Below, in pieces: positions 2,736 through 53,870 of a DNA stretch of 64,000 bases. The stretch is taken from the UHGV virus genome UHGV-0112180; one strand, given 5' to 3'. The translations under genes were made by a program, and so were the position numbers. The notes under the pieces are model-generated. The model worked only from the letters and a program-made list of their open reading frames with translations, was not told where the DNA came from and made no database searches. Origin of the DNA: a virus. Positions within the stretch are counted from its first letter, which is position 1. Each line of letters opens with the position of its first letter.

Positions 2736-2779
2736 CATTTGTGTTAGAAAATACATATTAATTATCTAACACAAATGGG
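2736..2779. repeat. Palindrome: 13-bp inverted repeats (CCATTTGTGTTAG / CTAACACAAATGG) separated by an AT-rich spacer
   Basis: Read directly; lies between the RdgC-like start and the upstream gene end; contains the recurring TTCTAACA motif. Confidence 0.4.
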
Positions 2780-2787
2780 TGCATTTT

Positions 2788-3441
2788 CTATCCTTTCTTG
2801 AAATCGAAGTTGCCAGCAGTGGCCTGAAAGGTTCCTCCTGCCTTGAAAGCTATGTCTCCGTTAGCGGTGACAGCTATATTTTCCCCATTAACATTGATGT
2901 TGTTGGCTGATTTGACGTTAACACTCCCTCCTGCATTCACGATTACATCAGCCGGACCAATGATATATATCTGCCCGGACTCATTCATGCCAATCCTTGA
3001 GCCTGCTGCCGTATTGGCAATTTCATAGCCGCCACCAGCAGTTCGTACTTCAAGAATATTGTTGCGGTGAATAACGAAGTCTTTCGTTGCTGAGATTTGG
3101 GGGCGGGGAGGTGCTCCATCTACTTCCGGCGGCGTCCAGCCGTTGCCTTTGCCAGATGCTTCTGGTGCAACGTTTGGAATTCCTCCCGGTGCATCCTGAG
3201 CGGCACCAACTATCATTGGGCGTCTGGTGTCTATTCGACCGTTAACATCTAAATAAGGAAACTCTACCCAGACCAGGTCACCTTTGACTGTAGGTACAAA
3301 AGCGTTCCCGATGGGTAACTGGTATTCCGCCCAGGGTAGATCGTCATCAGGAACGCCATTCCAGTCAGGTAAAACACGGACTTGAGCACGCATAAGCCCT
3401 GCCGGGTGCACAGTTCCAACAATTTGCGCTCTACGCTTCAT
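2788..3441 (-). CDS. Baseplate hub/spike protein (gpV-like N-terminal OB fold plus beta-helical repeats)
   Basis: N-terminal pattern GTVHP...RAQVRVLPDW...GDLVWVEFPYLDVNG typical of baseplate assembly protein V; C-terminal GGSVNVKSANNINVNGENIAVTANGDIAFKAGG repeats. Confidence 0.5.
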   Translation of the reverse strand: MKRRAQIVGTVHPAGLMRAQVRVLPDWNGVPDDDLPWAEYQLPIGNAFVPTVKGDLVWVEFPYLDVNGRIDTRRPMIVGAAQDAPGGIPNVAPEASGKGNGWTPPEVDGAPPRPQISATKDFVIHRNNILEVRTAGGGYEIANTAAGSRIGMNESGQIYIIGPADVIVNAGGSVNVKSANNINVNGENIAVTANGDIAFKAGGTFQATAGNFDFKKG

Positions 3442-4418
3442 TTGTTAGGCACTCCCAATATCATTCGTGTTGTGTAGCCTACGCGGTCCTCAAAGTGCGC
3501 AACATTTTTTACTATCAGCTTACGGGGCATTGATTCATCAATGCGGTTTTCCTGGTCATAGCGGTATACGATAATCTCTATTACCATCCCCGGTTTTATA
3601 TCAGGATTGCCTGCGACTTCTATATCCATTTTGGGGACGAGAGACAGCTGCATATTGCGAAGAGTTTCCATATCAGAGTCGGATATATAACGCACTGGGA
3701 GTGAGCTATCGCCATATTCGACGTAGCCATCGGTCATGGAATACCCAACAAAACGATATTGATTCTTTGCTGTTGTCGCATGTTCCTGTTGGAGTAGGCG
3801 CATTTTGGACAAAGTGTATTCTGCTTTAGGGTTATTCCCCTCGTAGGTAAATGATGGCGTTTGCTTCATCAGATCAGCCAGGGTATAAAAGTTAAATTCC
3901 CCCCGACATACCCAACACAATGCACCTTTGTCTCGCGCTATCTCCGAAAGCATTTTTGACGGTTTGTCACCGGCATTCAGATGATATGTAACTGCGCGTT
4001 TTAGCACGCTGCTGGTAATTTTAAGTTTGCCGGAATATGCCTTGAATATAGCGTCTGGTGTTTTGTTGGTATGTAAATTTGTGCGCGGGGAGGGGATCTT
4101 AAACCTGCGCACGTCTTCACTGACAGCAATAACGGTAACAACATCACCAGCCAGCATTGCAGACGTAACAAAGAAATCTGTTTTAAAAGTGCCTGCATTA
4201 CCGTTTGGATCGCCCATTTCAGCCACCAGCGATGCACCGTATTTGGCTTTCCAGTCATCAATTACGGTGCCGGTAGCGTCATGAATTTCCAGTTTTAGCA
4301 AAGGGGCTTTGAGGCTGGTTTTTTCTACATATACTGCGGTAAAAATCCAGTCTCGTGGCACTTTGTTATCGTTAATGAGCACTGACTGTAGAAAATATTG
4401 TTGTAACTCCTGGGCCAC
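3438..4418 (-). CDS. Hypothetical phage protein (tail/baseplate region)
   Basis: 326-aa ORF coupled to neighbours (4-nt overlaps); no recognisable motif. Confidence 0.35.
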   Translation of the reverse strand: MAQELQQYFLQSVLINDNKVPRDWIFTAVYVEKTSLKAPLLKLEIHDATGTVIDDWKAKYGASLVAEMGDPNGNAGTFKTDFFVTSAMLAGDVVTVIAVSEDVRRFKIPSPRTNLHTNKTPDAIFKAYSGKLKITSSVLKRAVTYHLNAGDKPSKMLSEIARDKGALCWVCRGEFNFYTLADLMKQTPSFTYEGNNPKAEYTLSKMRLLQQEHATTAKNQYRFVGYSMTDGYVEYGDSSLPVRYISDSDMETLRNMQLSLVPKMDIEVAGNPDIKPGMVIEIIVYRYDQENRIDESMPRKLIVKNVAHFEDRVGYTTRMILGVPNK

Positions 4419-4421
4419 TTA

Positions 4422-5189
4422 TCACCCCATAGATATCGAGGTTTCGGTAATAATACGTTTTGCGTCCAACTCCCATGCTGTGATCACGTCTGCAATCACA
4501 CTTATCGGCGCTTGTGTGGCATAAATACGCTCTTCTCCAATTGGTGCTGAAACATCCGTAAAGCCGACTTCTTTGGCATCCTGTATCGAGCAAATCAGCG
4601 GGACCGGGACACGAACAAGGTGAGTGGTTGCTTCAAATTGTGTACCTGTCATCAGGCGAAGCCGTGCGCCCAGCGAATTACACATCAGACTCATGGTCGC
4701 TTTATCAGTTGCCATTAACGTAACGTCATACGTCAGAATGGCCTGGGTGTATTCCAGTTCTGCTAAAGGCATTCCGGTATCCGGTTCGCAAAAACTGGCT
4801 ACTTTTTTGCGGTCAATCTGCTGATCATCGTTGATATAATTGATATCCATAGTGCGTGAGATATTGACCAGGGGGAGAGCATCCCGGTTAATGTTCTGGT
4901 TTTCAGGTTTTCTCCCTTGCCCGGCATTTGCGCGACGAACTGCTTTAAGAAACTCGATCGCATTGTCGAAACGGGCCACATAGACACGCTCTGCTGGTGG
5001 ACGATTCAGGAATGACGCAAAGCGTTTTTCTTCCGGCGCGGGGGCCACCAGTAAGATATCAGAAAAAATGTTGCTGATTAGCGTCGCAAACGCGTTATCC
5101 ACGTTTTCAAAGCCCGTGGTCTGGAATTTTCCTGTGCGTGAGGTTTGCCATTCACCTGTTCGCGCCAGGAGGGTTTTATTTGAAGTCAT
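4422..5189 (-). CDS. Hypothetical phage protein
   Basis: 255-aa ORF in same-strand operon; no recognisable motif. Confidence 0.35.
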   Translation of the reverse strand: MTSNKTLLARTGEWQTSRTGKFQTTGFENVDNAFATLISNIFSDILLVAPAPEEKRFASFLNRPPAERVYVARFDNAIEFLKAVRRANAGQGRKPENQNINRDALPLVNISRTMDINYINDDQQIDRKKVASFCEPDTGMPLAELEYTQAILTYDVTLMATDKATMSLMCNSLGARLRLMTGTQFEATTHLVRVPVPLICSIQDAKEVGFTDVSAPIGEERIYATQAPISVIADVITAWELDAKRIITETSISMG

Positions 5190-5989
5190 TCGATCACTCC
5201 GTTTTGAGTCGTATCAAAATTCCTGGCAGGTATGCAGTAGTAAAGCGAACCAACATGCTGTGTGCCGTAGCTAAAAATACGGTGCACGTACCACCAGCGG
5301 CGCGCTACGCCGTTTACCATCTCTTCATTCCATTCAAGAATTGAGCCGACGGGGACGTTATTTGCTGCAATACGCAGAATCAGAACATCATCGGTTAAGC
5401 CATCCTGCTCACCGTCTGCGTCAATCGCATGGAAAGAGTCACGCCCGTCAGGGTTATCCAGCACATAAACGATTTCAGGTTCCTGGTAAGTCAGTTCGCG
5501 TTGGTTGTTATCCAGTTCAGTGAATGACTCTTCTCCTGTTTCGTCGCTGACTACCCCATATGTGCCAACATCTGGTCGATATAAGAGAGCCTGAAACGCG
5601 TCTGGGCTGGATTCAATAATCAGCATCCAGTCTGCGCGGATTTGGTCGTTAAAGGCTTTATGCCCGTTATAGCGTGCTTTTAACTGTGGAGTCGGTTCTC
5701 TGCCAGCCAGGGAAGATGGAAGTATGGCTATATCTGATTCGCCAGCATCCGGAGTAAGGCCACCGTTGCTATCAGCAAAATTATCATGGCTATCAGCTTG
5801 GGCGGCGGGTTGCTCTTCCAGAATGCTGAATGAATCCGAACCGGTATTGCCATGTTCCGGCGCGCCTCCTGCATTCGCTTCAATCGGCGCTGGCGTTTCT
5901 CTCTGCGTGCTGTCATGTTCTGACTCCTTACTTGCCAGGTTTGCATCGTCAGCAAACCATTCGTCAAAACGGCCCATAAGCATCCTCAA
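5186..5989 (-). CDS. Hypothetical acidic phage protein
   Basis: 267-aa ORF overlapping the downstream gene by 4 nt; acidic low-complexity N-terminus. Confidence 0.35.
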   Translation of the reverse strand: MRMLMGRFDEWFADDANLASKESEHDSTQRETPAPIEANAGGAPEHGNTGSDSFSILEEQPAAQADSHDNFADSNGGLTPDAGESDIAILPSSLAGREPTPQLKARYNGHKAFNDQIRADWMLIIESSPDAFQALLYRPDVGTYGVVSDETGEESFTELDNNQRELTYQEPEIVYVLDNPDGRDSFHAIDADGEQDGLTDDVLILRIAANNVPVGSILEWNEEMVNGVARRWWYVHRIFSYGTQHVGSLYYCIPARNFDTTQNGVIE

Positions 5990-6139
5990 AGGTCGATCTG
6001 TCAGGTATCGAAAGGAAGATTTTCTGGAGATTGTGATTTTGGATGAAGGAGGGGGAATTCATAAAATGCACTTGCGCACAGTGCAACGGTGCGCTATAGT
6101 TATGGCATTCGGTAATCATCACGGAGGATCAAATGACTA

Positions 6140-6442
6140 ATGACCAAAAAAATTAACATAAAGGATTTCAGGGATGCGTGGCTTGATGATTTTTTTGAAT
6201 TTTCAACACCACATAGAAAGATACCTCCTGATATTCATATGACATTGTCACGGAAGTTGGACATTATCAATGCCGCAACTACCTGTAAGGATTTAAGATC
6301 ACCACCAGGTAATCGGTATGAGGAACTGTCAGGGAAGCTAAATGGCTATTCATCAGTAAGGGTGAATAAGCAATATAGGTTAATTTTTAAGTGGGTTAAC
6401 GGAAAGGCCGAGGACTTGTATCTCGACCCTCACAAATACTAA
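6140..6442 (+). CDS. higB: HigB-family toxin (plasmid maintenance killer protein, RelE/ParE superfamily)
   Basis: KDLRSPPGNRYEELSGKLNGYSSVRVNKQYRLIFKW matches the HigB signature; followed by an HTH antitoxin gene. Confidence 0.85.
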   Translation: MTKKINIKDFRDAWLDDFFEFSTPHRKIPPDIHMTLSRKLDIINAATTCKDLRSPPGNRYEELSGKLNGYSSVRVNKQYRLIFKWVNGKAEDLYLDPHKY

Positions 6443-6512
6443 AACAGATACCCGGTTACGGACCGGGTTCTGACCAGAGTCCACTTAATACGCACGCTAG
6501 TAAGGGCAAAAA

Positions 6513-6851
6513 ATGAAACAGGCAACCAGAAAACCGACGACCGTAGGTGATATCCTGCTGTACGAATACCTGGAGCCGTTAGAGCTGAAGATCAACGAGT
6601 TAGCAGAAATACTTCATGTTCATCGTAACACCGTAAGTGCTCTTGTTAATAACAATCGTAAGCTAACGATGGATATGGCATATCGCCTGGCAAAAGCATT
6701 CGATACTTCTGTAGATTTTTGGATTAATCTTCAGACCGCAGTAGATCTGTGGGAAGTCGAAAATGATATGCGCGTTCAGGAAGAGTTAAGTCGTATCAAT
6801 ACTGCTGAAAAATTTATTTCTCAGCGGAACCTGAATAAAAAAGCAGCCTGA
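6513..6851 (+). CDS. higA: HigA antitoxin (Xre-type HTH)
   Basis: TVGDILLYEYLEPLELKINELAEILHVHRNTVSALVNNNRKLTMDMAYRLAKAFDTSVDFWINLQ is a typical HigA HTH. Confidence 0.85.
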   Translation: MKQATRKPTTVGDILLYEYLEPLELKINELAEILHVHRNTVSALVNNNRKLTMDMAYRLAKAFDTSVDFWINLQTAVDLWEVENDMRVQEELSRINTAEKFISQRNLNKKAA

Positions 6852-6870
6852 TATAGTAAAACACATACAA

Positions 6871-6900
6871 AAAGCCCACTTAGCAAGTGGGCTTTCCTTT
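6871..6900 (+). terminator. Rho-independent terminator after higA
   Basis: AAAGCCCACTT-AGCA-AGTGGGCTTT followed by CCTTTG. Confidence 0.55.
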
Positions 6901-6907
6901 GTAATTA

Positions 6908-7108
6908 ATGAACATTAAACCTATCCGTACAGAACAAGATTATGAGGCCGCACTGCGTGCGGTCGAACCGATGTTCGATAACGAACCGGAAATGAATACT
7001 CCGGAAGGTGATTTCTTTGAGGTTATGAGTCTTCTCATTGAGGAGTACGAGAAGAAACATTACCCAATTCAACCACCATCACCTGTTGAATCTTTTAACT
7101 ATCCATAA
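6908..7108 (+). CDS. Orphan antitoxin-like fragment: resembles the N-terminal (non-HTH) domain of two-domain HigA-type antitoxins; HTH half absent
   Basis: MNIKPIRTEQDYEAALRAVEPMFDNEPEMNTPEGDFFEVMSLLIEEYEKKHYPI then stop; the expected HTH is missing. Possibly a truncated gene. Confidence 0.4.
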   Translation: MNIKPIRTEQDYEAALRAVEPMFDNEPEMNTPEGDFFEVMSLLIEEYEKKHYPIQPPSPVESFNYP

Positions 7109-7129
7109 TAAAAGTAATCAGGATAAGCT

Positions 7130-7858: not shown

Positions 7859-7864
7859 AAGCCC

Positions 7865-9407: not shown

Positions 9408-9600
9408 AACAAAGCCTCTCAGTCATAACCTGGGGGAAACTGTATGCAGGGTGTGAAATGCGAGAAACAGACAGGCCACCAGTTCAGGGGGATGTGGTTC
9501 ATAAATCCCCTCACTGGTGACAAGTGACTTTCATTAATCTTTATGCGGGGGCCAGCTTCATTTGCTGGCATTAGATTAAAAATCAAACGGAGTAAATGAC

Positions 9601-10389: not shown

Positions 10390-10735
10390 TGTCCTTCCTC
10401 CACGGATGACGGATACAAAAAAAGGCCGCACATGGCGGCCTGCTTTGGCGTTATGACTCCCTACCGCGCTTCGGCTGAAAGTTAATCGTCAAAAGAACCT
10501 TCAACGGGAGCCGTTAGCGCGATGGATTATGTGCAGTTTGTGATTTCCAGAATAGTGTCAACCACTTTTTGAGGATTTTATTATTTGACCGAAACTTGGC
10601 CTAAATCATGTTGATGTAGTTGATTGTTTTTATAACATAAAACCTCATTTTGTTTACATGAAGGACGGGGTAGTGAAGTTAAGGGTTTTAGGGACCGCGC
10701 TCGCGGCTAAGATGGTAAAGTATGGAGTTAATGAA

Positions 10736-13606: not shown

Positions 13607-13918
13607 ATTGGCAGCCTCCTTTGACTAAGTTAAGGAGCTACCGCGTGAGGTTCCAATCTCAATGGCGGTAGCACTGACTGGGTTGGAACTACCGGCGTCA
13701 AAGGGAACCGGCCTGCCTTTCGGCAGCCCAGCCAGCACTACCATTGATCTCTGAGCTAAACGCTAAGTATGGCTGTGCGATGGCATGACACAAAAAAAGA
13801 CGCGTTCGGCGTCTGTGTCGCCTTTGACATTATCCGGGGTTCCAATCCCGGCACCCGTTTTTCTAAGGTGCCGTAGAAATATACCCCACGATAATGCCAG
13901 GGCGCAACAGTCAGTATT

Positions 13919-14086: not shown

Positions 14087-14417
14087 TTTGACACCCCCAG
14101 CGCGAGTAAAGAATGCAGATTATCGCGTGAGTGGTGGACGACGAGTGATGGGAAAAGACTGTAGTTGTTCATAGTGTAGTGACTCCTTGCTTTCGGAGCC
14201 GCCATCGACTGTTCCACGGTCTGGTGGCGGCGCAATAAAGGCTGGAACACCGTGAGTCAACGGGGGCTTTTCAGCCACCTATATTGCACCGCCATAGGTA
14301 TGGCGGCGGCAATAATACGAAAAACTAAACAGTTTGTCTCAAAAAGTTGACCGGTGTGCCAATCGGTAGTGAATGTACATCGGTGAAATTCACAATTCAA
14401 CTTAAAATGTTAGAAAA

Positions 14418-14996
14418 CTAATTTATCAATTCAATCGCCATCTGATACAACGTCATTTCATCGGCATTGTGCCGCATGAAATCTGCTTTTCCGCCTATTT
14501 TTCCGTCAGCATGAACAGGGACCAGCCAGGGATATTGTTCTCGGACCTCGGCTGGCGCTGCGTACTGGTGGTGCCATTTACACAAAGGGAGGACATATTT
14601 ATGCGCGTTCTCTACCGTTCTCCCGAAGATATGGTGCAGGGATACCACAGGGCTATGTTGCCCGTGAATATGGCAGGCAATGCAGGGGAGAGTACCGATA
14701 GCGGTCTGTATCCGGCGTTCATCGGCTGTGAGTGATCTGCCCTTCAGGCCGCGTGACGTGCGTGTTTTTTTGGGCGGAGCGGATACCGCTTTATCTTTTC
14801 TCCGCTGTTCATATTGCTTTGCTTTTTCAATTTTCTTTTGCCGATATTCAGGCGATGCGGCTTTTTCTCTCGCTCGCTGCTGCTGGCGTTGAGCTTGTTG
14901 AAGGCGCTTTGCCCTTTGTTCCTCTCGCCAGGCTGGGTCAGCCAATTTTTGCATGGCTTTTTGTCTCTGTTTCTCCCAATAGCTCTGTTTCTGCAT
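14418..14996 (-). CDS. Ref-like recombination enhancement nuclease (HNH-type; P1 Ref analogue)
   Basis: Highly basic disordered N-terminus plus C-terminal His/Cys cluster LPCIACHIHGQHSPVVSLHHIFGRTVENAHKYVLPLCKWHH, matching the known architecture of P1 Ref. Confidence 0.55.
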   Translation of the reverse strand: MQKQSYWEKQRQKAMQKLADPAWREEQRAKRLQQAQRQQQRAREKAASPEYRQKKIEKAKQYEQRRKDKAVSAPPKKTRTSRGLKGRSLTADERRIQTAIGTLPCIACHIHGQHSPVVSLHHIFGRTVENAHKYVLPLCKWHHQYAAPAEVREQYPWLVPVHADGKIGGKADFMRHNADEMTLYQMAIELIN

Positions 14997-15268
14997 GATG
15001 GCAGTCTCTTACTTTTCAACGATTTTTCTATGATTGATCATAACCGTTAGATATTCAAAATTGATTTTCTAACACAAAACATTAATATCATCACTGATAA
15101 ATGTTTGGAGGACATGATGCTTATAGCTTTAAGTGCGATCCACCAGCCATCTGTGAATGAGATTGGCCTGTTCTATGTGTTGGTTTTCGGGGCGTTGGCG
15201 CTACTTGAGCTTGGTATTGAGCTTTTCGCAGTGCTTATGTTTTGCGTCACGATTCTGGGGAAATTTTG

Positions 15269-16672: not shown

Positions 16673-17079
16673 AGAGGATGATTTTTGTGGCGGCATTGCT
16701 GACCATTACCCAACAGGCGCAGGCTTCAGCAGTTATTGTGGCATCTACCGCCGCGACCACGGCTGCTGTAGCTGCTGCGAACTCTGCGAATATCGCAAAC
16801 CAACAGTCACAGCGTGCTGCCAATGCATCAGCCAGTGTTCACCCGATCGCCATTAAGACCGGCAAGAAAAATATAGGTTTCATAACATGCGGCAAACGTT
16901 CTGACGAGGCTGTAGGTTCACTTGGATGTACGGTATATGGGGATAGTGAGAGTAGAGAAATTCCATGGAAAACGTGGCCCGGATACGTTCTCGGATCGAA
17001 GCTCCCTGCCAGCTACGAAGTAAATGCCGTATCGTTTGATCACTATAACGGCGTGGCAACTGTCTATTTTACATACTGA
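16669..17079 (+). CDS. Secreted Ala-rich small protein
   Basis: N-terminal signal peptide MKRMIFVAALLTITQQAQA; Ala/Thr-rich low-complexity region. Confidence 0.35.
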   Translation: MKRMIFVAALLTITQQAQASAVIVASTAATTAAVAAANSANIANQQSQRAANASASVHPIAIKTGKKNIGFITCGKRSDEAVGSLGCTVYGDSESREIPWKTWPGYVLGSKLPASYEVNAVSFDHYNGVATVYFTY

Positions 17080-19608: not shown

Positions 19609-19705
19609 TCAAATCATTTACGCACTCAAAATACGTTAGAACATTGATTTTAGTTTTCTAACATATTATTTTACCACTCGGAACAAAACAGAGTCGGTAT
19701 GCATT

Positions 19706-22353: not shown

Positions 22354-22354
22354 T

Positions 22355-29859: not shown

Positions 29860-29932
29860 AGCACCCTCCTAAATAGGCGAGGGTACTTTACAGCAAAGAC
29901 GTTAATCTAAAAAGATGTGTTAGAAATTTAAT

Positions 29933-30961
29933 TTACGAATCCATCAGGCGGCTATTAGCCCCCACAGACACGCCGCCACGGCGAAGATACCGCATAAGTG
30001 TTTCCGGTTTCTTCCAGGTTCCTTCCTGCATGATCTCCACCATAGACACCTGCTTTTCAGCCATATCAATAGCGGCCCCGACGCGTGCACTATGCCCGGT
30101 CCACGTCCGGTATCTTCCTTTGTTTGGCGTAGCATCTCTTTTATTCAGCAACACCCAGGCGTCGCTGAATATTTTCTCCATTGCAGGTGCAGTAAGGGGC
30201 GTTATCGTGATCCTGGCCTTATTGCTACGGTGTATCGGCGGGAACAGCACTGCGTCAGGATGTTCGCGAAGCCCGGAAACATCCAGCCAGTCATTCAGCA
30301 CAGCGGTAGTGCGACGGGAAAGCACCTTATCAAGCCCGGCGGCGGTCGTTATTGTCTTCGTGTGTGAAATATGTAGCGTGACAGTGTCACCTGTTTGGTC
30401 CAGATCTCCTACACGAATACGCGAGATTTCCGACATACGCATCAGCGTATTGTATGCAACAAAGAGAAAAGCCCGGTTGCGCAGGTCCACCAGCCGTTCT
30501 GACCTGGACAACAGGACGTCGAGCAGTTTCAGATCGTCCCACCGCAGCGGTATAGCCTGGCCTGTTCGTTCGCCTTTTTCCGTTGCCGCTTCACGCCGGA
30601 TGCGCCGCATAGCCAGAGAAACACTTTTATCATCCGAAAGTGGCGGAAGGCCACAATGCGAAAGCAGCATGTTAAGCATGGCGTAGTGCTTATCAATGGT
30701 GGTCGAAGCCAGATCAGCATCATGCAGCTGAAGAAAATACTCGCGGGCCATCTCTGGTGAGATCGGGAACCAGGCGAGCTGGCGAGCGTGACACCATCTC
30801 GCCCAGGAGTGAAACACTAACCGGAGATCGCGCAAAGTATTCGGCGCATAAGCCCCCTGGTCATTCATGAACCGCATAAAGTTTTCTGCGGCCTCCTGGT
30901 ACTCTTTGCCAATGTTGCGCAGAAAACCACCGGAGCTGCCAGAGATAATTAATTCACTCAT
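29933..30961 (-). CDS. dre: Cre-family tyrosine recombinase, Dre-like (phage D6 type)
   Basis: 342 aa; aligns to Cre over LSVCRSWAAWC/LVFHSWARWC, MRRIRKE/MRRIRRE, and catalytic region TWTGHSARVGAAIDMA...MRYLRR (Cre GHSARVGAARDMA...MNYIRN); adjacent rox-like site. Confidence 0.85.
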   Translation of the reverse strand: MSELIISGSSGGFLRNIGKEYQEAAENFMRFMNDQGAYAPNTLRDLRLVFHSWARWCHARQLAWFPISPEMAREYFLQLHDADLASTTIDKHYAMLNMLLSHCGLPPLSDDKSVSLAMRRIRREAATEKGERTGQAIPLRWDDLKLLDVLLSRSERLVDLRNRAFLFVAYNTLMRMSEISRIRVGDLDQTGDTVTLHISHTKTITTAAGLDKVLSRRTTAVLNDWLDVSGLREHPDAVLFPPIHRSNKARITITPLTAPAMEKIFSDAWVLLNKRDATPNKGRYRTWTGHSARVGAAIDMAEKQVSMVEIMQEGTWKKPETLMRYLRRGGVSVGANSRLMDS

Positions 30962-31113: not shown

Positions 31114-31145
31114 TAACTTTAAATAATGCCAATTATTTAAAGTTA
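31114..31145. other. rox-like recombination site (lox-family target of the Dre-like recombinase)
   Basis: TAACTTTAAATAAT-GCCA-ATTATTTAAAGTTA: perfect 14-bp inverted arms, 4-bp spacer, about 150 bp upstream of the recombinase gene; matches the rox site as remembered. Confidence 0.75.
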
Positions 31146-31355
31146 TAAAATGCCGATTTTTTTTAATCCATCATAGATTGATGATGACCAGTAACACGTT
31201 GCCTTCATGGTCTTTAATTTGCGAAGTGTGGTTTCTACGGTTGGTTTTCTAAAATTGATGACAAAAAATCACAGTTCGATCCTTTACTCACTCTGTTATT
31301 CGACATAAATTTGTCATAGTAATTTTATGTTAGAAAACTAAATCGAGTAGGAATA

Positions 31356-32393
31356 ATGAGTAAGAAGTCGATCGAGAAAGAGTACAAACGGTTCCTGCAA
31401 ACCGCTGAACGGTGGAAAGAGCTGGTGGTCGCAAACTCTGTTTTCCATGATACCAGTTATGCTGGCGAGGAATTCCGCCATGTTGCATTAACGCATGACC
31501 AAAACATATTAGAAGAAGCTGAAAAATGTCTTGCTGAATGGAAAGCCTTCGTTGACATGTGCCGCGATGCCGACGGCAAAGCGTCGAACATTGTTGAGTC
31601 TGTATATTCTCCGATCCCATTCATCATTGAGGACACCAATCAAAGCACGCATGTCGTTGTGCAAAGCGCTACAACAACACGTACATTTACACGTGAACAA
31701 TTGCTAAAAAAATACGACAAAATCATAAAGAAAAGCCTTAAAAATAGGGTTTTTTCTCAAATCGTAGGTGATCTTGAAGAAGAACAGCGCTTCTTTGAAG
31801 CTGAGCCTGAAGGCGAGATCTACCGGGCGCGTAAAGAGGCATATACAGATGTTGTGCTGACAACAAACATCGAAGGCAGCAATGCCCTTTCTCGCTTTAG
31901 AGTTGGCGCACATGGTGCATTGGTTTTCGCAAGACTACCGAAGACAACGATCCCCGTTGTCAATAATGTTGGTGAACGCCGGAGCATTACAATTTATTCT
32001 GGCGTCGAATCGGTACCTTGCAGCCTTCTCGGCGATTTTAACTTATATCGTGTTCGTGACCTGGAAAAACACCAGCCAAGCTATGTTGCGAAGTCGTACA
32101 TCTTAAGGAACATCGATATTCGCAATGAAAGCCTTAAGCAGAAATCCGCTAAGATGCTGGAGGATGCCGATCCGGCTATTCGCCATATCATTGAGCGTAA
32201 GATACGTACATCACGTGAAGCAATGGCAAGGCTGGATAAAATGGATCTGGAATTGTTAGACGTAATGATGGCCTCTGGAGACGACCTGACCGGCATTAAA
32301 CTGAATGAAGCTCGTAAAAAATACGGCAAAGCAATCGAAGAACGTTACGGATACACATTCCCCCAAACGCAGTACGCCGCGAAGCTCTGGTAA
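31356..32393 (+). CDS. Hypothetical protein at the P1 immC (c1) position
   Basis: 345-aa ORF convergent with pacB; two copies of the TTTCTAACA-type motif in its upstream region; no sequence-level confirmation. Confidence 0.35.
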   Translation: MSKKSIEKEYKRFLQTAERWKELVVANSVFHDTSYAGEEFRHVALTHDQNILEEAEKCLAEWKAFVDMCRDADGKASNIVESVYSPIPFIIEDTNQSTHVVVQSATTTRTFTREQLLKKYDKIIKKSLKNRVFSQIVGDLEEEQRFFEAEPEGEIYRARKEAYTDVVLTTNIEGSNALSRFRVGAHGALVFARLPKTTIPVVNNVGERRSITIYSGVESVPCSLLGDFNLYRVRDLEKHQPSYVAKSYILRNIDIRNESLKQKSAKMLEDADPAIRHIIERKIRTSREAMARLDKMDLELLDVMMASGDDLTGIKLNEARKKYGKAIEERYGYTFPQTQYAAKLW

Positions 32394-35682: not shown

Positions 35683-35790
35683 TAATCCCCCGGGCAGGAA
35701 ATGACCGAGGGGATGATAATGAGAATGTTAAAACTGTATAGACTGGTAAAAAGATGATTGTATTAGAAAATTAATACTAAATATCTAATG

Positions 35791-36183
35791 CTACCAGCGA
35801 GACAAACGAACAACATGTTTCACTTTTGCGATCCACTGTCCGCGATAACTATTGATTACGGCCTGTGCCAGCTTCAAATTGGCTTCAAAATCAGCCTTAC
35901 TACCATCAGACTCCACCAGCATTCCTCCATCTATTTCTGGTAAACATAGATAATCCTGCTCAACCTGCAGCGGCATTGATGGCTCTCTGAATGGGGTTAC
36001 TTGCTCTGCTTTCCAGCGAAATCTAACCCTTATCCCCCTGGTGGTCATTACTAGATAGCCTGTTATAGTGCTTTTATGGCCCACATCAGTACGCGTGGCA
36101 TTGCATGACACGATCTTACAGTTAGCGATAGACCACTCCATATTGGTGGCCTGTTGAGTGCTTAATTTGGTAGTCCCGTACAT
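35791..36183 (-). CDS. Hypothetical protein
   Basis: 130-aa ORF. Confidence 0.3.
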   Translation of the reverse strand: MYGTTKLSTQQATNMEWSIANCKIVSCNATRTDVGHKSTITGYLVMTTRGIRVRFRWKAEQVTPFREPSMPLQVEQDYLCLPEIDGGMLVESDGSKADFEANLKLAQAVINSYRGQWIAKVKHVVRLSRW

Positions 36184-37212: not shown

Positions 37213-37288
37213 TGGTGGCCCCTACCGGACTTGAACCGGTGACCGTGCGATTATGAGTCGCCAGCTCTAACCACTGAGCTAAGGGGCC
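37213..37288 (-). tRNA. tRNA with CAU anticodon (Ile2/lysidine-type, ileX-like; Met not excluded)
   Basis: GGCCCCTTAGCTCAGTGGTTAGAGC...GACTCATAATC...GGTTCAAGTCCGGTAGGGGCCACCA; 7-bp acceptor stem, canonical D and T arms, encoded CCA. Confidence 0.8.
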
Positions 37289-38273: not shown

Positions 38274-38360
38274 TGGCGGAGAGTAATGGAATCGAACCAT
38301 CATCGCTTGCGCAATGGGACGGTTTTCAAGACCGTTTGAGCACCATGCTCCCTACTCTCC
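38274..38360 (-). tRNA. tRNA-Ser(UGA)-like, type II with long variable arm and atypically short D-loop (possible pseudo-tRNA)
   Basis: Acceptor GGAGAGT/ACTCTCC + G + CCA; anticodon arm ACGGT-CTTGAAA-ACCGT; T-arm GATGG-TTCGATT-CCATT; D-loop only about 5 nt. Confidence 0.45.
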
Positions 38361-38977: not shown

Positions 38978-39054
38978 TGGTGCCGGTTAACGGACTCGAA
39001 CCGCTGACATCCTGCTTACAAGGCAGGCGCTCTACCAACTGAGCTAAACCGGCA
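38978..39054 (-). tRNA. tRNA-Thr (UGU)
   Basis: TGCCGGTTTAGCTCAGTTGGTAGAGCGCCTGCCTTGTAAGCAGGATGTCAGCGGTTCGAGTCCGTTAACCGGCACCA; perfect acceptor and anticodon stems. Confidence 0.8.
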
Positions 39055-39057: not shown

Positions 39058-39144
39058 TGGTGGGGAGTGATGGAGTCGAACCACCCGAGTCGCAATGACA
39101 GTAGATTTACAGTCTACCCCGCTACCCCTACGGACTAACTCCCC
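39058..39144 (-). tRNA. tRNA-Tyr (GUA)-like, type II
   Basis: Acceptor GGGGAGT/ACTCCCC + A + CCA; anticodon arm GTAGA-CTGTAAA-TCTAC; long variable arm; D-arm somewhat atypical. Confidence 0.55.
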
Positions 39145-39149: not shown

Positions 39150-39226
39150 TGGCGATGGTGGGTGGATTCGAACCACCGACCGACAGCTTAGAAGGCTGCT
39201 GCTCTATCCTACTGAGCTACACCACC
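39150..39226 (-). tRNA. tRNA-Arg (UCU)
   Basis: GGTGGTGTAGCTCAGTAGGATAGAGC...CCTTCTAAG...GGTGGTTCGAATCCACC...GCCA; anticodon loop CUUCUAA as in argU. Confidence 0.75.
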
Positions 39227-39426
39227 ACTGTGCCGGGTACGTCTCCGGCGAGGGCTTCCACCTCCGTATGCTTTTCGGCGCACCGCGCCCTGGCTGCAAT
39301 TCAGTAACAGGGGATGCATAACCCTGGCTTCCAGCGTGATTAGCGCCTTCAGCATGACGGGATATACCCGTAACCAACAAACTTTCCCATATACCATCAA
39401 GCAATGGCTGTTACGCGGGAGGGACG

Positions 39427-39505
39427 TAACAGGTAAGGGCGCTGACCAGAAAGACCTGACCCTTCTCATTCATCTGGTTAATCACACCAGCGCCCTTGCC
39501 TGTTA
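39427..39505. repeat. Hairpin element of the tRNA-array repeat family (17-bp inverted repeat)
   Basis: TAACAGGTAAGGGCGCTG ... CAGCGCCCTTGCCTGTTA. Confidence 0.45.
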
Positions 39506-39730
39506 TGCCTCCCCGTTCCCTAATACACAGACGGGGACACTCTGCGGTCGATTTTTTGACGGGGGACGACTCATACCCCGTGGCGTCAGGCTTCTTAGGC
39601 CGCTACCATCATCAGATCATCGTTTGCATTTACTTTAATGGTCGGGTTCTAAACCGCCGCAAAGTCGCTAACCATGACGAAAACCCTAAAAAAGCCCACC
39701 CGAAGATGGGCAAATACGCTACATCTCACA

Positions 39731-39809
39731 CAAGAAAGAAGCCGACTGCCTGAGCTGGATTCACTTTCAAATGCCCGCTGAAAGGGATCACAAGTCGGCT
39801 TCTTTCTTG
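39731..39809. repeat. Large hairpin (17-bp perfect inverted repeat) in the noncoding region
   Basis: CAAGAAAGAAGCCGACT ... AGTCGGCTTCTTTCTTG with about 45-nt loop. Confidence 0.4.
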
Positions 39810-40461
39810 ATGCGGCACTCTCTCCGCCCGTCACCGCTCTGTCTCGGTTGTCGCGTTTGCCACGCCAGCCATAACGAGGTTTAAAGTCTTTTCACGTTCC
39901 CATCACTCGACTGCCGTCTGTGGCTGTTCGTTGCAGCGGGGGTGCCTCCCCCTGGGGATATCCCCGGCCTTACCCCATTCTTTCAAGACACAATGCAAGG
40001 CCACATCCGCATAGGTGCATTACCGCAACATTAAGGAGACTCAGGGCAAAAGGTAACCGCCACAAAAATCCCTATGCCTCCTTAATGTTGAAGATGTGCA
40101 TTGATGATTAGATGCAGCATGTACCGTTACTCTCTGCCGGACCATCATCAATGAACACCTTAAAAAGACCTTCCGTGGCTCAACATGTATTGTCGTTTAC
40201 TCCGCAAAGTGCTCTCTCTGAAACCACTTTCCGCACTAAACCTGTTGAACTTTGGTCTGCTCGGTGCCAAAGCGTGCTCTTGGTTTACTATACTTTTCTA
40301 ACACTTTAATTTGTTAATTGCTGGTGGGCAAACAATAACCAATAAGTGACTATCAAGCCCAGCAAGCGAAACGTGGGTACCGCCCACCAGCAAGGAAAAT
40401 TCTATGTTAAGTCATCTTCACAATCAATACATTCGAATTGTGATTTTAGATTTCTAACACA

Positions 40462-41670
40462 TTATTTCCCATAAAGATCTTCTACACCCCCATTCTTCTT
40501 ATCCCATTCGTTCGCCCATACCCGGCAAGCGTCAATGATTTCCTGACGACGATCTCCTTGCATGAACGGAATGCTTTCATGGAAACAGCTTGGAATGCAG
40601 GCCACACTGAATACAGTATCAAACTCCGTCTGCTTGATTGCCTCCAGCGTCTCCGGACGCATTTTTAATTCATCGATTGGCGCATCCTTAGAGTCCATAA
40701 TCCGGCGATATAAGCGCGGAAAATCCGTCTCCAGGTACGCCATAATTTTATCTGCGAGACATTCGTCTATGTCGGTATTCCAGTCCTTTTCGAAGCCCGG
40801 CAGGCGATAGTAAAGCGGCGTTCCCCATACCGATGGGATCACATCCATCGTTAACAGGCGATTAGTTCTGATTTGTTGATGGTAATTAGCCGTCAGCAGT
40901 GCTTCGCCACGCTGCCCAGTTTCCGCAACCAGGCCGTGCGGATACTCATGGATGTAGGCAATGGCATCCCTTCCATCATACATAAGTGGAAATGTCTCTG
41001 GTCTTTGTCCCATGCCACAAGCACGGTTCAGATCGTGACCAAGCTGTGAGCACTCTCGCTTTAATGTTTCGATAATGCTCTGCGCTGTAGCCAACTTTTT
41101 ACGCAGTGTGACGCCTTCGCCTTGATAATCAATGCATTGCTGATTGAGCTTGGTTAAACGCTCTTTTAGTTCCCGGCGCTCTCTTTTCAGCGTGCGGTTA
41201 TCCTTCTCCGCAACATCCAGCCGCTTTGTCAGGCTGGGCGGATAGTCTTTTTTGTAACGGTTCAAATCGGCTTCGGCAGATTTACGCAGTGTATTTGCCT
41301 GTTCAAGACGCGCTTCCAGATTGCCGATCTCATTACGCATATTCGCGGCAAATTGATTAACTGCATCGCCCAGGCTTTCAACTGTCGCTGATACGCCTGT
41401 GACTTGTGAAAAACGGATCAAGCCATCATTAACGGCTTGTTGGTATTCCTCAAACTGATCCACCAGCTTATTGTAATCAACTGCCCCATCATCAAGCAGC
41501 TTGTTGATTTCCGCCACCAGGTTATCTGTAGTGGCAATGACACTCTCGTGCAGTCGCTTTGACAGGTCATCTCCCGGATTCCGTTTCTGTATAAGAGCGA
41601 TTTGTGTGCGCAGCGTTTCAATTGCTGTCGAGATAATTTCCAGATTAGAAGTATCAGTGTGTTGACTCAT
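40462..41670 (-). CDS. Hypothetical coiled-coil protein
   Basis: About 400-aa ORF; start ambiguous (GTG at 41685 or ATG at 41670). Confidence 0.4.
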   Translation of the reverse strand: MSQHTDTSNLEIISTAIETLRTQIALIQKRNPGDDLSKRLHESVIATTDNLVAEINKLLDDGAVDYNKLVDQFEEYQQAVNDGLIRFSQVTGVSATVESLGDAVNQFAANMRNEIGNLEARLEQANTLRKSAEADLNRYKKDYPPSLTKRLDVAEKDNRTLKRERRELKERLTKLNQQCIDYQGEGVTLRKKLATAQSIIETLKRECSQLGHDLNRACGMGQRPETFPLMYDGRDAIAYIHEYPHGLVAETGQRGEALLTANYHQQIRTNRLLTMDVIPSVWGTPLYYRLPGFEKDWNTDIDECLADKIMAYLETDFPRLYRRIMDSKDAPIDELKMRPETLEAIKQTEFDTVFSVACIPSCFHESIPFMQGDRRQEIIDACRVWANEWDKKNGGVEDLYGK

Positions 41671-42294: not shown

Positions 42295-42789
42295 TTAATC
42301 AAGACAAACATACTCCGTGATAGCTTTTATGGCTTCAGCGGCACTGCGCGCCTCAAAGCAGTAGTAACCGGCTTCAGTGAGGCGGGTCATCCAGACGAGT
42401 TGTTCGGGAGTCAGGCGATTTCTCCCATGTTTCATCTCAATGCGCATTCCGTGGTATCCCCCACAAGCAAGGTCTATAGAAAGATCGGGATATCCCTTCT
42501 TTTGGCCCTCTGCCACCATTTTTATTGCCGTCCTTATGCCTCGCAGGCCACCGTTTGGAGTGGCGTGAGTATGCTCATACACATAACGCATATTGCGATA
42601 CAACCAGTCCAGGACGCGAACCTGCTCGTAATGCTCATGGTTCCTTTTGATTAGATCTGGGTTTTTCTCCAGTTCTCTAAGAGCTGCGGCATGTGGGGAT
42701 GTTTCAGAATATTCACTGCGACGCCTTCTCTTTCGCGCTATTTTTCTAACACACCCATTGATGGTAAATATGCGAAATAATAACAACAA
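42295..42789 (-). CDS. VRR-NUC domain nuclease-like protein
   Basis: KKGYPDLSIDLACGGYHGMRIEMKHG resembles the VRR-NUC (PD-(D/E)xK) core; N-terminal extent uncertain. Confidence 0.45.
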   Translation of the reverse strand: MLLLFRIFTINGCVRKIARKRRRRSEYSETSPHAAALRELEKNPDLIKRNHEHYEQVRVLDWLYRNMRYVYEHTHATPNGGLRGIRTAIKMVAEGQKKGYPDLSIDLACGGYHGMRIEMKHGRNRLTPEQLVWMTRLTEAGYYCFEARSAAEAIKAITEYVCLD

Positions 42790-50496: not shown

Positions 50497-50647
50497 AGGA
50501 TTTCCCCCTCTAAACCGTAAAAAATTCCGCTATGCGGTACGGTTGAGAGGGTATGGAGAATGTTATTTTCAGGGGGACGATACTACCGTCAAAATCACAT
50601 ACTCCCCATAGTTTGCCTACTTATTAACCCATGACCGGGAGAAAAAT

Positions 50648-51133
50648 ATGGCAAACATTGAACCTCGCTGGCTAATTGAAGCCCGTAAGCACATTGGCCT
50701 GACTGAAATAAAAGGCGCTAAACACAACCCTGAAATCGTTCAGTTCTGGCGCGACATCAAGCGCGGCGGAATTAAAGACGATGAAACGCCGTGGTGCGCA
50801 GCATTTGTCGGTGCAATGCTGGAACGTGTAGGCATCCGCTCAACAAGATTTGAGTCGGCAAAATCCTATCTGGATTGGGGCGAAAAATTAGATACACCGG
50901 CATACGGATGTATCGTTGTATTTACCCGCGTAGGCGGTGGGCACGTAGGCTTCGTTGTCGGACGCCGTGCCAATGGCGATCTGCTTGTCCTGGGTGGGAA
51001 CCAGGGGGATGCTGTTAATATTCGCGCATTCCCAACATCAAGAGTGTCTGGCTATCGCTGGCCTGCTGGCGAACCACGCAATACCGCTCTGTTACCAGTC
51101 GGAGACGCAGCAACCTCAACTAATGAGGCATGA
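50648..51133 (+). CDS. CHAP/NlpC-P60-like peptidoglycan hydrolase family protein (tentative)
   Basis: Putative catalytic Cys (ETPWCAAFVG) and His (GGGHVGFVVG) in a 161-aa protein. Confidence 0.5.
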   Translation: MANIEPRWLIEARKHIGLTEIKGAKHNPEIVQFWRDIKRGGIKDDETPWCAAFVGAMLERVGIRSTRFESAKSYLDWGEKLDTPAYGCIVVFTRVGGGHVGFVVGRRANGDLLVLGGNQGDAVNIRAFPTSRVSGYRWPAGEPRNTALLPVGDAATSTNEA

Positions 51134-51136
51134 AAA

Positions 51137-51164
51137 AAGCCCCGGCCAGGCCGGGGCATCACGC
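51137..51164 (-). terminator. Rho-independent terminator (minus strand)
   Basis: On minus strand GCCCCGGCC-TGG-CCGGGGC followed by TTTTTT. Confidence 0.5.
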
Positions 51165-51165
51165 T

Positions 51166-51366
51166 TCAAGTCACGATCCAATCATTACCGACTATATCAG
51201 CCGTCGATAAATCAACTTCCCGGATCTGGAGTCCATTAATACAAAACCATCCGGTAGTAGAGTAATTATCAGGCCAGGCCCATACACCAACACTCCATAC
51301 TTTACGGCGGCACACTTCAGCCTGTCCTTCCCTGATTTTTTTTACCGCCTGCATGATGTCCATCAC
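51166..51366 (-). CDS. Small protein downstream of ant (copy 2)
   Basis: 66-aa ORF overlapping the ant stop; homologous segment is fused in copy 1. Confidence 0.35.
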   Translation of the reverse strand: MMDIMQAVKKIREGQAEVCRRKVWSVGVWAWPDNYSTTGWFCINGLQIREVDLSTADIVGNDWIVT

Positions 51367-52070
51367 TCACCTCCCCAACCGATCACCTGGAATTGCCCCA
51401 TTTTGGGGTGATACCAGCGTTTTCCTCGGTGTTCAGCCTCCGACATCATCCGGTTAAAAGCATTCATGAAGGGAGATAAGGCCACGATTGAACGACGCGA
51501 CAATACCCCCTCTGGAGTTAAAAACTCATGCGTATCTGTGGGGATCCGGTAAGCGTTGACCAGGTTGCGGCATTTGGCTTCGGTCAGGCCGCATTTTGCC
51601 GCCAGCTGGCGGTAGCCAATGTAACCTTCCGGCATGTTGCCCTTCTTGATTTGCTCGACGGTTTCTACCACTTGGCTAACCTTTGACTCAACAACATGAA
51701 GCCGCTTTTGCTGCTGAACTGCATTTGCAGCCATTGCGGCGATCATCTCTATTTCGGTCAACGGCTGGCGTGCTTGTTCTTCCAGTTCGCGCCAGCGGTC
51801 CACCAGCCGGGCGGTGAATTCGGGAGAGAGCTGCGCAACGACAATAATGCTGTCTCGTTTGCCTTGCTCGCCTTCGAAGACGTAAGCCTCGACACTACGG
51901 CGTAGTCCTAAGTTATTGATTTTTTCGAAAACCTGCAATGCAGGAAGTTGAATAACTCCAGATTTAGCCAGGCGCTCTATTGATATTTTTACGTTATCTG
52001 GACGACTTCCCACCAGCTCCGCGATCTCAATGCTGGTCATTGATGGCTTTTCAAGAATGCAGATATCCAT
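51363..52070 (-). CDS. Rha-type phage regulatory protein / antirepressor-like (copy 2, intact)
   Basis: MTSIEIAELVGSRPDNVKISIERLAKSGVI and FEGEQGKRDSIIVVAQLSPEFTARLVDRWRELE; single 235-aa frame. Confidence 0.55.
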   Translation of the reverse strand: MDICILEKPSMTSIEIAELVGSRPDNVKISIERLAKSGVIQLPALQVFEKINNLGLRRSVEAYVFEGEQGKRDSIIVVAQLSPEFTARLVDRWRELEEQARQPLTEIEMIAAMAANAVQQQKRLHVVESKVSQVVETVEQIKKGNMPEGYIGYRQLAAKCGLTEAKCRNLVNAYRIPTDTHEFLTPEGVLSRRSIVALSPFMNAFNRMMSEAEHRGKRWYHPKMGQFQVIGWGGE

Positions 52071-52294
52071 CAGTGTGCCTCCGCAATTCCGGGATTGGTA
52101 ATATTGCGATACCAGGGATTAGTGTTTGGTTGTGGGGAAGTAGAGAAACGACCAGTAAGAACACCATGCTGATCAGGGATCAGAGAACGGGCTTCTTTTT
52201 CGGTTGCGGCAATTGCGAAGTGATCGCAGTGTTTTTGCAGGGAGTGGAAACGCCAGATGAATTCTGGACGTGAGCAAGGATTGGCATTAACCAT
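52070..52294 (-). CDS. Icd-like small protein (copy 2)
   Basis: 74 aa, EFIWRF...AATEKEAR motif; stop overlaps the ant start. Confidence 0.5.
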   Translation of the reverse strand: MVNANPCSRPEFIWRFHSLQKHCDHFAIAATEKEARSLIPDQHGVLTGRFSTSPQPNTNPWYRNITNPGIAEAH

Positions 52295-52707
52295 AGTTAC
52301 GGCCTCACTAACAGGTTTAACAACCTGCTACCCGCTGTCAAACAGGTGGCAGGACGTGACAGGGTTGACAGACTGGCGTTAGTGAAACCAGCAGGCCGAA
52401 GCCTCCCCATCACGCCCCACCATAATTCGGGCGTAACGCGGTTTACGGACACAAAAATACCGCAATATCGGAAATCTGCGGTTGTCCGCACTAACATTCA
52501 GGCTGTCAAACCTGGTCGCAGAATTTGCTACGACGGCATGAATATAAGCCTGAAAACATGGAAGATCAACTAAAAATTTCAGCAATGGATGACTTCAGTC
52601 GATGATGCAGATCATACATTCCGATTTAGAAACAGCAAATTAATTTTCTAACACAGATTATCGAGCGAGCATTTTCCGATCATTGGGATGTTTTGTAGAC
52701 ACACAGG

Positions 52708-53670
52708 TCATCCCCTAAAGCCCGCCGGGATTGACCAATCCTCACGGTCAAATTCAGACCGATAGCCACGCTGTTTCATCAGGTCAAAGGCTTCACCAAT
52801 GGTTGCACACCCCAGGGAGCCAGAATAATCCATTGAGAAATCCAGGGCACTGGATTGTTTAGGCTTATTCACTGCGGTAGCGGCACTACGTATCCATGCA
52901 AATTTTTTTGCCAGCTTTTCAGCGGTACGATACAGAGCCTGCCGTTTTGCGTGCCCCTCGTCTGAACGACGCTTTGCAGCTCTCGCTTTTGCCGCCGCCA
53001 GGCAGTGGTTGGTATGTTCTTCCCTGATTACTGGTTTTTTATCCAGCACCCCATTATCCGCTTGAGAACTATCTGCTGGTGAAGCCTTTGGCTGAACCGC
53101 GCATGATCTTTCTCTTCTTTTTGCTATAGAGTGACTCTTATTTTCTATTGGCTGTTCATTTTGAACATGGGGGGACTTGTTCAATTTGAACAGGGGGTTC
53201 CCAGTTTCAAAAAAATAACGAACCTTTGAAATCAACTGCTTAACCAGTTTTGTGGCGTTGGCAAATTTGATGCCCTGCTTACCCCCTATCTCCATTGCTA
53301 CATGAATGAAGTGGAGAAATTGTGTCGTAAACCGATATACGTTACACACCTGGGCATTGTTATTCGCTACCTGATGTTGCTTAACAAGCATTCCGCACTT
53401 CGTCGCTTCAGCAAATGCCCGGCGCACAGTAGAAATACTGCGTCCTGTAATCTCGGACATATCAGCATATGAGCGACGGATCATGTATTCATCGGTAGAC
53501 CCTGCCAGGTTGGCGAACTCGGCAATAATGGCGCTATGTGAAGGGGAAAGAAGACCGCTATGACGAGCAAAAAAACTCAACTGATGACCTTTGATTTTTT
53601 TGTGGTATTCAGTGTTGTTTTTATACTCAGAAGTGTTGAAAGTTACTGAAACTGAATTTAAAATACTCAC
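52708..53670 (-). CDS. HTH-containing protein, possibly a RepL-type replication or regulatory protein
   Basis: HTH-like MSEITGRSISTVRRAFAEATKCGMLV; position upstream of the immI-like module. Confidence 0.3.
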   Translation of the reverse strand: MSILNSVSVTFNTSEYKNNTEYHKKIKGHQLSFFARHSGLLSPSHSAIIAEFANLAGSTDEYMIRRSYADMSEITGRSISTVRRAFAEATKCGMLVKQHQVANNNAQVCNVYRFTTQFLHFIHVAMEIGGKQGIKFANATKLVKQLISKVRYFFETGNPLFKLNKSPHVQNEQPIENKSHSIAKRRERSCAVQPKASPADSSQADNGVLDKKPVIREEHTNHCLAAAKARAAKRRSDEGHAKRQALYRTAEKLAKKFAWIRSAATAVNKPKQSSALDFSMDYSGSLGCATIGEAFDLMKQRGYRSEFDREDWSIPAGFRG

Positions 53671-53870
53671 CAGATAGTTCCGTGAAAAAATCTATCTACC
53701 GTATAAATCTATGGCAGTGGATTTATACACCCAAAAAGCCGCTTCTCAGCGGCTTTTGCTTTTTTGGCAGTCGCTACCGGAGCAGTGACCGCGATCCTAC
53801 TCGATCCCATCCACCAGGATCAACAGTGTATATAAATACACTATGTTAGAAATTTAACTTAACAAGGCAA

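Follow-up and report, generated by a model that had tools for sequence, protein, structure and literature searches.

Dispersed candidate operators of a C1-family repressor in a D6-like phage-plasmid

A scattered motif in the window

The window analysed here, a stretch of 64,000 nucleotides from the virus genome UHGV-0112180, shares 95-99% identity with Escherichia phage D6 and is a D6-like phage-plasmid of the P1 family. D6 is a P1-related plasmid prophage in which Dre and rox stand in for Cre and lox. The gene map of the window was drawn from tblastn searches with D6 proteins; window position 1 corresponds to D6 position 61375, and window position 31130 to D6 position 1. The gene for a C1-family repressor, c1, sits between rox/dre and pacB, and a short asymmetric motif, the subject of this study, is scattered over the window. 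Regulatory sites are not annotated in the D6 record, and a full-text literature search for the motif or for D6 operators returned nothing relevant within a scope that did not take in the D6 genome paper, which may list sites. The annotated C1 operators and late promoters of P1 were extracted from record AF234172 for comparison.

The sequence TTTCTAACA was present in 12 exact copies in the window. Its core, TTCTAACA, gave 12 exact matches against 2.06 expected, and the degenerate form WTTTCTAACAY gave 12 against 0.13 expected, a number that none of 100 shuffled sequences reached. As many as 11 of the 12 copies were intergenic, lying in 6,578 bp with a GC content of 44%, where a first-order Markov model of the same intergenic DNA predicted 0.084 and the maximum in 500 simulations was three; the intergenic set was defined as the window minus D6-protein matches, RNA genes and replaced coding blocks. 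Only one copy was found in the 57.4 kb of coding DNA. The frequency expected of AT-rich intergenic DNA had been named beforehand as the yardstick for the motif, and it was clearly exceeded. Scanning with a weight matrix derived from the sites added two strong ones with one mismatch (2755-2773 and 35759-35777), giving in total 12 loci with 14 strong sites and 4-5 weaker partner or auxiliary sites, the fifth being the possible partner at lpa (Table 1).

A consensus was derived from 28 sites pooled from the window, phage D6 and one diverged relative. It spans approximately 19 bp, is asymmetric and non-palindromic, and reads A-N2-TTA-N2-TTTCTAACAYA, with high information from -9 to +9 around the core. 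The whole D6 genome contained 16 sites, compared with 0-2 in shuffled sequences. D6 keeps all of the window sites and has one further site beyond the window, located just 5' of orf52 in the gp23/orf52 intergenic region, and the 30-kb late-gene block of D6 contained no D6-type sites.

A sequence-only reading of the window had proposed a dispersed operator-like motif at 14 or more intergenic sites, and this observation was confirmed. Eleven of the 15 positions that it listed coincided with exact-core sites, and another (29925-29940) was displaced by approximately 8 bp from the true span, 29916-29934. The entry at 2764-2776 proved to be the one-mismatch inverted partner (TATCTAACA) of the hrdC site and that at 19633-19643 a two-mismatch partner, whereas the entry at 31243-31257 was a weak site with one mismatch (TTTCTAAAA) in which GGTTTTCTAAA is nevertheless unchanged in two diverged relatives. 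The list was not complete, because the strong site upstream of lpa (TTTCTAATA) had been overlooked. Intergenic placement was confirmed for most sites; the exceptions were 42735-42753, inside the annotated 5' end of pmgM, and 14406-14424, which abuts the ref stop codon.

Relative to local transcription, approximately eight sites pointed in the same direction and approximately six in the opposite direction, indicating that the motif is recognized on DNA rather than RNA. At five loci, divergent copies were found at the fixed spacing TTAGA-N16-TCTAA, and these pairs are termed "bivalent" below.

Table 1. Candidate operators, the c1 gene and the predicted c1 promoter (positions refer to the window; assignments as operators are predictions)
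Feature	Position	Strand	Remarks
Bivalent operator upstream of hrdC-dcm-dmt, half 1 (ATATGTATTTTCTAACACA)	2740..2758	-	Ends 13 bp before hrdC ATG; P1 counterpart Odmt
hrdC bivalent operator, inverted partner half (TATCTAACA, 1 mismatch)	2755..2773	+	
Operator at ref stop codon	14406..14424	-	5' of orf86/isrK/C4/icd2/antirepressor-2 module; P1 counterpart Omat
Bivalent operator, divergent ref/orf88 intergenic region	15043..15076		Strong half 15058-15076 (+); weak half 15043-15061 (-, 2 mismatches); P1 counterpart Oref
Bivalent operator between ppp and pdcB	19632..19665		Strong half 19647-19665 (+); weak half 19632-19650 (-)
Operator directly after dre stop codon	29916..29934	-	5' of orf117-orf116-dut operon
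Candidate weak auxiliary site (TTTCTAAAA)	31238..31256	+	About 30 bp 5' of predicted c1 -35
Predicted c1 promoter (TTTACT-17-TAAATT)	31283..31311		Promoter-like sequence conserved
Operator between predicted c1 promoter and c1 start codon (31356)	31326..31344	-	Candidate autoregulatory site; P1 Oc1
c1, 345-amino-acid C1-family repressor	31356..32393	+	Proposed binder
Operator about 80 bp 5' of lpa (late-gene activator gene)	35759..35792		Strong half 35759-35777 (-, TTTCTAATA); possible weak partner 35774-35792 (+); P1 counterpart Olpa
Operator in non-coding stretch 3' of pmgS	40287..40305	+	5' of tRNA/tciAB block; overlaps candidate minus-strand promoter TTAACA-19-TATAGT
Operator just past pmgS stop codon	40443..40461	+	15 bp 5' of minus-strand promoter-like TTGATT-17-TAGAAT (40427-40399)
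Operator between pmgR terminator hairpin and pmgS start codon	41692..41710	+	
Operator at annotated pmgM 5' end	42735..42753	+	About 25 bp 3' of strong minus-strand promoter-like TTTACA-16-TATTAT (42804-42777)
Bivalent operator just past repL stop codon	52622..52655		Strong half 52637-52655 (+); weak half 52622-52640 (-); about 100 bp 5' of c4-a1b1/C4 RNA/icd/antirepressor module; analogue of P1 Oc4/Orlf
Operator between pro stop codon and repL (lytic replication gene)	53842..53860	-	Analogue of P1 OrepL

The C1 repressor and the sites of related elements

A C1 homologue is encoded in the window. The window C1 matched PHROG 1678 over its full length (E value 5e-170), as did P1 C1 (E value 2.6e-140). 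The two proteins were 21% identical over 268 amino acids in BLASTP (E value 1e-8), and the window C1 was longer by 62 amino acids at its C-terminus. The distance from c1 to rox was only 225 bp (31130-31355), and tblastn searches of the window and D6 with P1 Lxc (Bof), Coi, ImcA and ImcB found no match with an E value below 0.3; Lxc is likewise reported as undetected in D6-like plasmids (PMC6799933). The immC region of the window and D6 is therefore much simpler than that of P1.

In P1, the dispersed operators bound by C1 number 22 and are asymmetric sequences of 17 bp, and RepL and Lpa are under its control (PMC8546580). When the window and P1 were each scanned with both matrices, the window contained 14 D6-type and no P1-type sites, whereas P1 contained 21 P1-type sites and one D6-type site attributable to chance; the P1/P7 operator spelling, ATTGCTCTAATAAATTT, thus had no matrix match in the window. 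The positions of the sites agreed with those of P1 operators at c1, lpa, repL, c4/icd/ant, ref, dmt and tRNA/tci, the last through the sites at 40287-40305 and 40443-40461, which are jointly the analogue of Oban, the control site of the P1 tRNA/tci/ban operon. As mapped on the genes, the set of sites is that of the P1 C1 regulon and not that of the P1 late regulon. The likeness to the P1 C1 operator proposed from the sequence, with TCTAA as the shared core, also stood, as this was the best register between the two consensuses (9-10 of 14 positions by consensus count) and was backed by a comparison at the recombinase stop codons. In P1 (AF234172), an unannotated operator-like sequence, ATTGCTATAATTATTTG, lies between cre and c8 at 1485-1501; its distance from the cre stop codon equals that of the 29916-29934 site from the dre stop codon. 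A reverse register (TGTTAGAAAAYTAATTT against ATTGCTCTAATAAATTT) would align the bivalent architectures of the two phages, but it matched at only six of 17 positions by consensus count and was not adopted.

Conservation was examined in relatives at increasing distance. PLSDB contained 149 plasmids with the D6 type of C1, at identities from 100% down to 25%. In the Shigella dysenteriae plasmid NZ_CP026818, whose C1 is 69.5% identical to that of the window and whose DNA is 70-77% identical, 13 sites were found at homologous places, and at ten aligned loci the 12-bp core was 92% identical, compared with 59% for the flanks. The site near lpa was present in this plasmid, but had been moved and flipped. 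The weak partners of the window appeared there as perfect 30-bp palindromes (TGTTAGAAATTCAAAATTGAATTTCTAACA), for example at the ref/orf88 locus, suggesting that the paired arrangement is functional. The conjugative plasmid pK91 carries only a D6-like fragment, without lpa, repL or the late and structural genes; c1 and both neighbouring sites are kept.

The C1 proteins of Leclercia pE1_003 and of a Citrobacter plasmid were only 30% and 29% identical to that of the window, respectively, and 49% identical to each other. The D6 motif was absent from both elements, and ATTCTAAGG took its place (seven copies in Leclercia against 0.67 expected), located 5' of ref, lpa and c1 and after the recombinase stop codon, pmgS and pro. 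Each of the three C1 clades therefore has its own spelling at homologous positions, and TCTAA is common to all three, supporting the earlier remark on a shared core. The most repeated word in Leclercia, AGTGATCAC, was also considered as the operator of that element and rejected: it clusters at or just upstream of the 5' end of pacA, as expected of a GATC-rich pac site rather than an operator. The corresponding stretch of pE1_003 (16800-17070), with AGTGATCA/GATC repeats at and just upstream of the 5' end of the pacA homologue, looks like a Dam-regulated pac site of the P1 type.

Operator reading and competing explanations

Very probably, the D6-type C1 repressor uses the motif as its operator, which would make this a heteroimmune version of the known P1-type C1/operator system. 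The proposal that the sites are operators of the primary repressor agreed with every computational test applied, namely the presence of a C1 homologue, P1-like gene contexts, mutual exclusivity with the P1 spelling, conservation of the core and covariation with the C1 clade. The sites are not a new kind of element or mechanism. In the absence of any P1-type operator and with a score of 25.9 bits against a cut-off of 500 for the NCBIfam C1 equivalog, the window is expected to carry the same kind of system as P1 and P7, but not the same immunity type.

Several observations weigh against this interpretation. The low NCBIfam score has just been given, and the window C1 lacks both a Pfam domain and a structurally solved relative; together these lead us to expect a DNA specificity other than that of P1 C1. 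The bivalent geometry is divergent here (TTAGA-N16-TCTAA), whereas that of P1 is convergent (TCTAA-N8-TTAGT), and the TCTAA register relative to the P1 operator, although retained, is ambiguous and unsettled. Lpa and other phage proteins diverge between the clades as well, so that covariation alone is not specific to C1. Sigma-70-like promoters were no commoner beside the sites than in shuffled sequence. Plausible -35/-10 pairs near several sites were therefore set aside as evidence, and an overlap between operators and promoters is only inferred. From the analogy with P1, we infer that C1 is the protein bound at the sites and that its binding represses transcription.

In the mechanism that we propose, the 345-amino-acid C1 would bind the asymmetric site of approximately 19 bp, 5'-A-N2-TTA-N2-TTTCTAACAYA-3'. 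In the plasmid prophage, C1 bound near lpa would silence this gene and thereby keep all late genes off, and C1 bound near repL would keep lytic replication off. The same protein would also silence the two c4/icd/antirepressor modules, ref, hrdC-dcm-dmt, the tRNA/tci block, pmgS/pmgM and the dut operon, and, from the site that separates the c1 promoter from the start codon, it would restrain its own production (negative autoregulation). As the operator spelling is unlike the ATTGCTCTAATAAATTT of P1, D6-type and P1 phages would be heteroimmune.

The sequence-only reading had offered a late-promoter element as the alternative to an operator, that is, a binding site for Lpa in place of a -35 element, as in P1 late promoters. 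When read on the opposite strand, most sites take the form TGTTAGAAA-N2-TAnnnT, in which a hexamer resembling a -10 element comes after a box; the low identity of Lpa to its P1 counterpart (31%) would lead one to expect a new box, and the further site in D6 is located in the gp23/orf52 intergenic region. An Lpa-type reading of this kind was considered and then dropped on the basis of the gene map, conflicts of orientation and the existence of a separate late box. The sites do not lie 5' of the canonical late operons (the gp26-gp5 tail genes, prt-pro, lydAB-dar, R-S-U, sit, tub and gp21-23), several of them would drive antisense transcription of ref, ppp or gp5 in the box-to-hexamer orientation, and others stand upstream of lpa itself and of c1. 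The late operons bear another well-placed box, AATCACA-N7-TAnnnT. In D6, the pattern A[AT]TCACA-N7-[TC]AnnnT had seven matches against 0.84 expected, and all seven were located 29-136 bp upstream of, and pointed at, orf16 (lysozyme-like), mat, gp23, pmgB, R, ddrB and prt, mirroring LPlyz, LPmat, LP23, LPsit, LPs, LPdar and LPpro of P1. This box also stands 5' of late genes in Leclercia and Citrobacter and is unchanged there, where the scattered motif changes, indicating that the motif tracks C1 and not the late-promoter system. A late-promoter role retains almost no credibility on this evidence.

A constitutive role as part of a conserved early sigma-70 promoter, free of any repressor (for example, with TAACAT as the -10 and TTGAnn or TTAGAn as the -35 element), is very unlikely. 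Several sites (14408, 19656, 41701 and 53844) can be read as a -35 element, a spacer of 16-17 bp and TAACAT, and TTAGAn-N17-TAACAy occurs at four sites. However, seven of the 12 cores end in TAACAC, which is a very poor -10 element, and the invariant block of 9-11 bp within an informative span of 19 bp exceeds a hexamer. With respect to the best promoter-like sequences, the sites lie upstream of the -35, in the spacer or at +10 to +30, and they face either way with respect to the flanking genes. In addition, elements read by the host RNA polymerase should keep their spelling between phage clades that share hosts.

It is improbable, too, that the sites bind a phage or host protein other than C1, such as an antirepressor partner, a nucleoid protein or a replication or partition factor. 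The DNA-binding domain of C1 is uncharacterised, the evidence that ties C1 to the sites is indirect, and other phage genes likewise differ between the clades compared. Against such a protein, the homologous positions in P1 carry operators to which C1 binding was demonstrated experimentally (PMC8546580; P1 annotation), and a host factor is disfavoured by the difference in motif between phages of the same hosts. The sites show none of the clustering of iterons or a centromere, and the phage remnant in pK91 keeps c1 and its two adjacent sites despite the loss of lpa, repL and the structural genes. A function in RNA (processing, antitermination or as the target of a small RNA), or an origin as a miniature mobile repeat, can hardly be credited at all. 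Several sites are located at gene 3' ends, after ref, dre, repL, pmgS and ppp, and would be transcribed; yet their mixed orientation does not suit an RNA signal, five inverted pairs at a fixed spacing are typical of protein-DNA sites, and Rfam gave no match at the sites. Conservation of the flanks stops beyond approximately 19 bp, which does not fit a mobile repeat.

If C1 is indeed the binding protein, the three spellings invite a further and more tentative proposal, to which we give slightly less than an even chance. The C1 family may read the invariant TCTAA, with approximately two flanking bases setting immunity specificity (GC-TCTAA-TA in P1, TT-TCTAA-CA in D6-like elements and AT-TCTAA-GG in Leclercia and Citrobacter) and with the arrangement of paired sites varying by clade. 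If such a code holds, the immunity groups of these widespread and often resistance-carrying phage-plasmids could be read from sequence, and a C1 fold without a Pfam domain or a solved structure would have a simple and evolvable recognition code.

E. coli, Salmonella and Shigella commonly carry D6-like phage-plasmids. Assignment of the operator would provide the first regulatory map of the prophage, naming the genes silenced in the plasmid state, and the predicted heteroimmunity would allow D6-like and P1-like elements to coexist or superinfect. The comparison of three clades is a starting point for studying how the structurally uncharacterised C1 family reads DNA, and early (C1) and late (Lpa) promoter signals can now be separated when these elements are annotated.

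Neighbouring features and comparison with known systems

Five candidate late promoters of the form AATCACA-N7-(T/C)AnnnT were located in the window, at 6019-6038 (-) for gp7, 10526-10545 (-) for mat, 50593-50612 (+) for orf16 (lysozyme-like), 56598-56617 (-) for prt and 58045-58064 (-) for ddrB. The late promoters of P1 follow the pattern AAGTGACTT-N4-TAnnnT, of which the window contained a single exact copy (9522-9540), without enrichment overall. This match, AAGTGACTT tcat TAATCT on the plus strand, lies between gp26 and the small orf77, at the position of the box shared by LP26 and LPpmgL in P1; it could be a relic, or a P1-type Lpa might be able to use it.

The annotated start of pmgM (42789) falls within the promoter-like sequence at 42804-42777, upstream of the candidate operator, and conservation with the Leclercia homologue does not extend to the 28 N-terminal residues of pmgM. 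The start was probably mis-called, with the true start codon further downstream. Between the tRNA cluster and pmgS, a stretch of 1.2 kb (39227-40464) contained no convincing open reading frame and no Rfam match; it holds two of the sites, promoter-like sequences and two Chi sites, and P1 has a dicF-like region in a comparable place. Five tRNA genes were found, all on the minus strand: Met-CAT (37213-37288), Ser-TGA (38274-38360), Thr-TGT (38978-39053), Tyr-GTA (39058-39144) and Arg-TCT (39150-39226). The GenBank record of D6 lists only three (Ser, Thr and Asn), on the plus strand, so the annotation, the content or both differ. Chi (GCTGGTGG) was present in 43 copies in the window against 1.6 expected, in agreement with its over-representation in P1.

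Two immI-like modules were recognized from Rfam matches at 13661-13748, 13793-13871, 52342-52427 and 52495-52547, all on the minus strand, comprising C4 antisense RNA twice, one c4-a1b1 target and one isrK-like RNA. Each module precedes an icd-like gene and an antirepressor gene, and downstream of the 52637-52655 site the C4 and a1b1 matches stand in the expected order.

The closest known system is the immC system of P1 and P7. As in D6-type elements, the repressor is a homologue from the same PHROG that aligns over its full length, a plasmid prophage of approximately 90 kb bears the scattered sites, and many of these are single and asymmetric, with inverted pairs, candidate bivalent operators in D6-type elements, at some of them; P1 and P7 have approximately 17-22 dispersed 17-bp operators (ATTGCTCTAATAAATTT). 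The targets common to P1 and D6-type elements are c1, lpa, repL, c4/icd/ant, ref, the dmt operon, the tRNA/tci operon and pmg genes. The two systems share TCTAA and differ in the bases around it, TT-TCTAA-CA in D6-type elements and GC-TCTAA-TA in P1. The informative span is approximately 19 bp and lies mostly 5' of TCTAA in the former, whereas it lies mostly 3' in the latter. P1 pairs are convergent with overlapping tails, unlike the divergent D6-type pairs, and D6-type elements have two C4/icd/antirepressor modules where P1 has one. P1 late promoters also resemble the D6-type motif, as short dispersed elements of the same phage family, and the opposite strand of the motif has a TAnnnT-like hexamer following; however, they consist of a 9-bp box (AAGTGACTT), 4 bp and a -10 hexamer, and the positions of the motif miss the late operons.

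A more distant parallel is found in mycobacteriophage L5 and other cluster A phages, in which the gp71 repressor acts on asymmetric 13-bp "stoperators" scattered over the genome. Like the D6-type system, this one has a single repressor and many copies of an asymmetric site within and between operons, and changes in the site sequence define immunity groups. In contrast to D6-type elements, the repressor belongs to an unrelated family, the phage integrates, and the stoperators are strongly oriented with respect to transcription.

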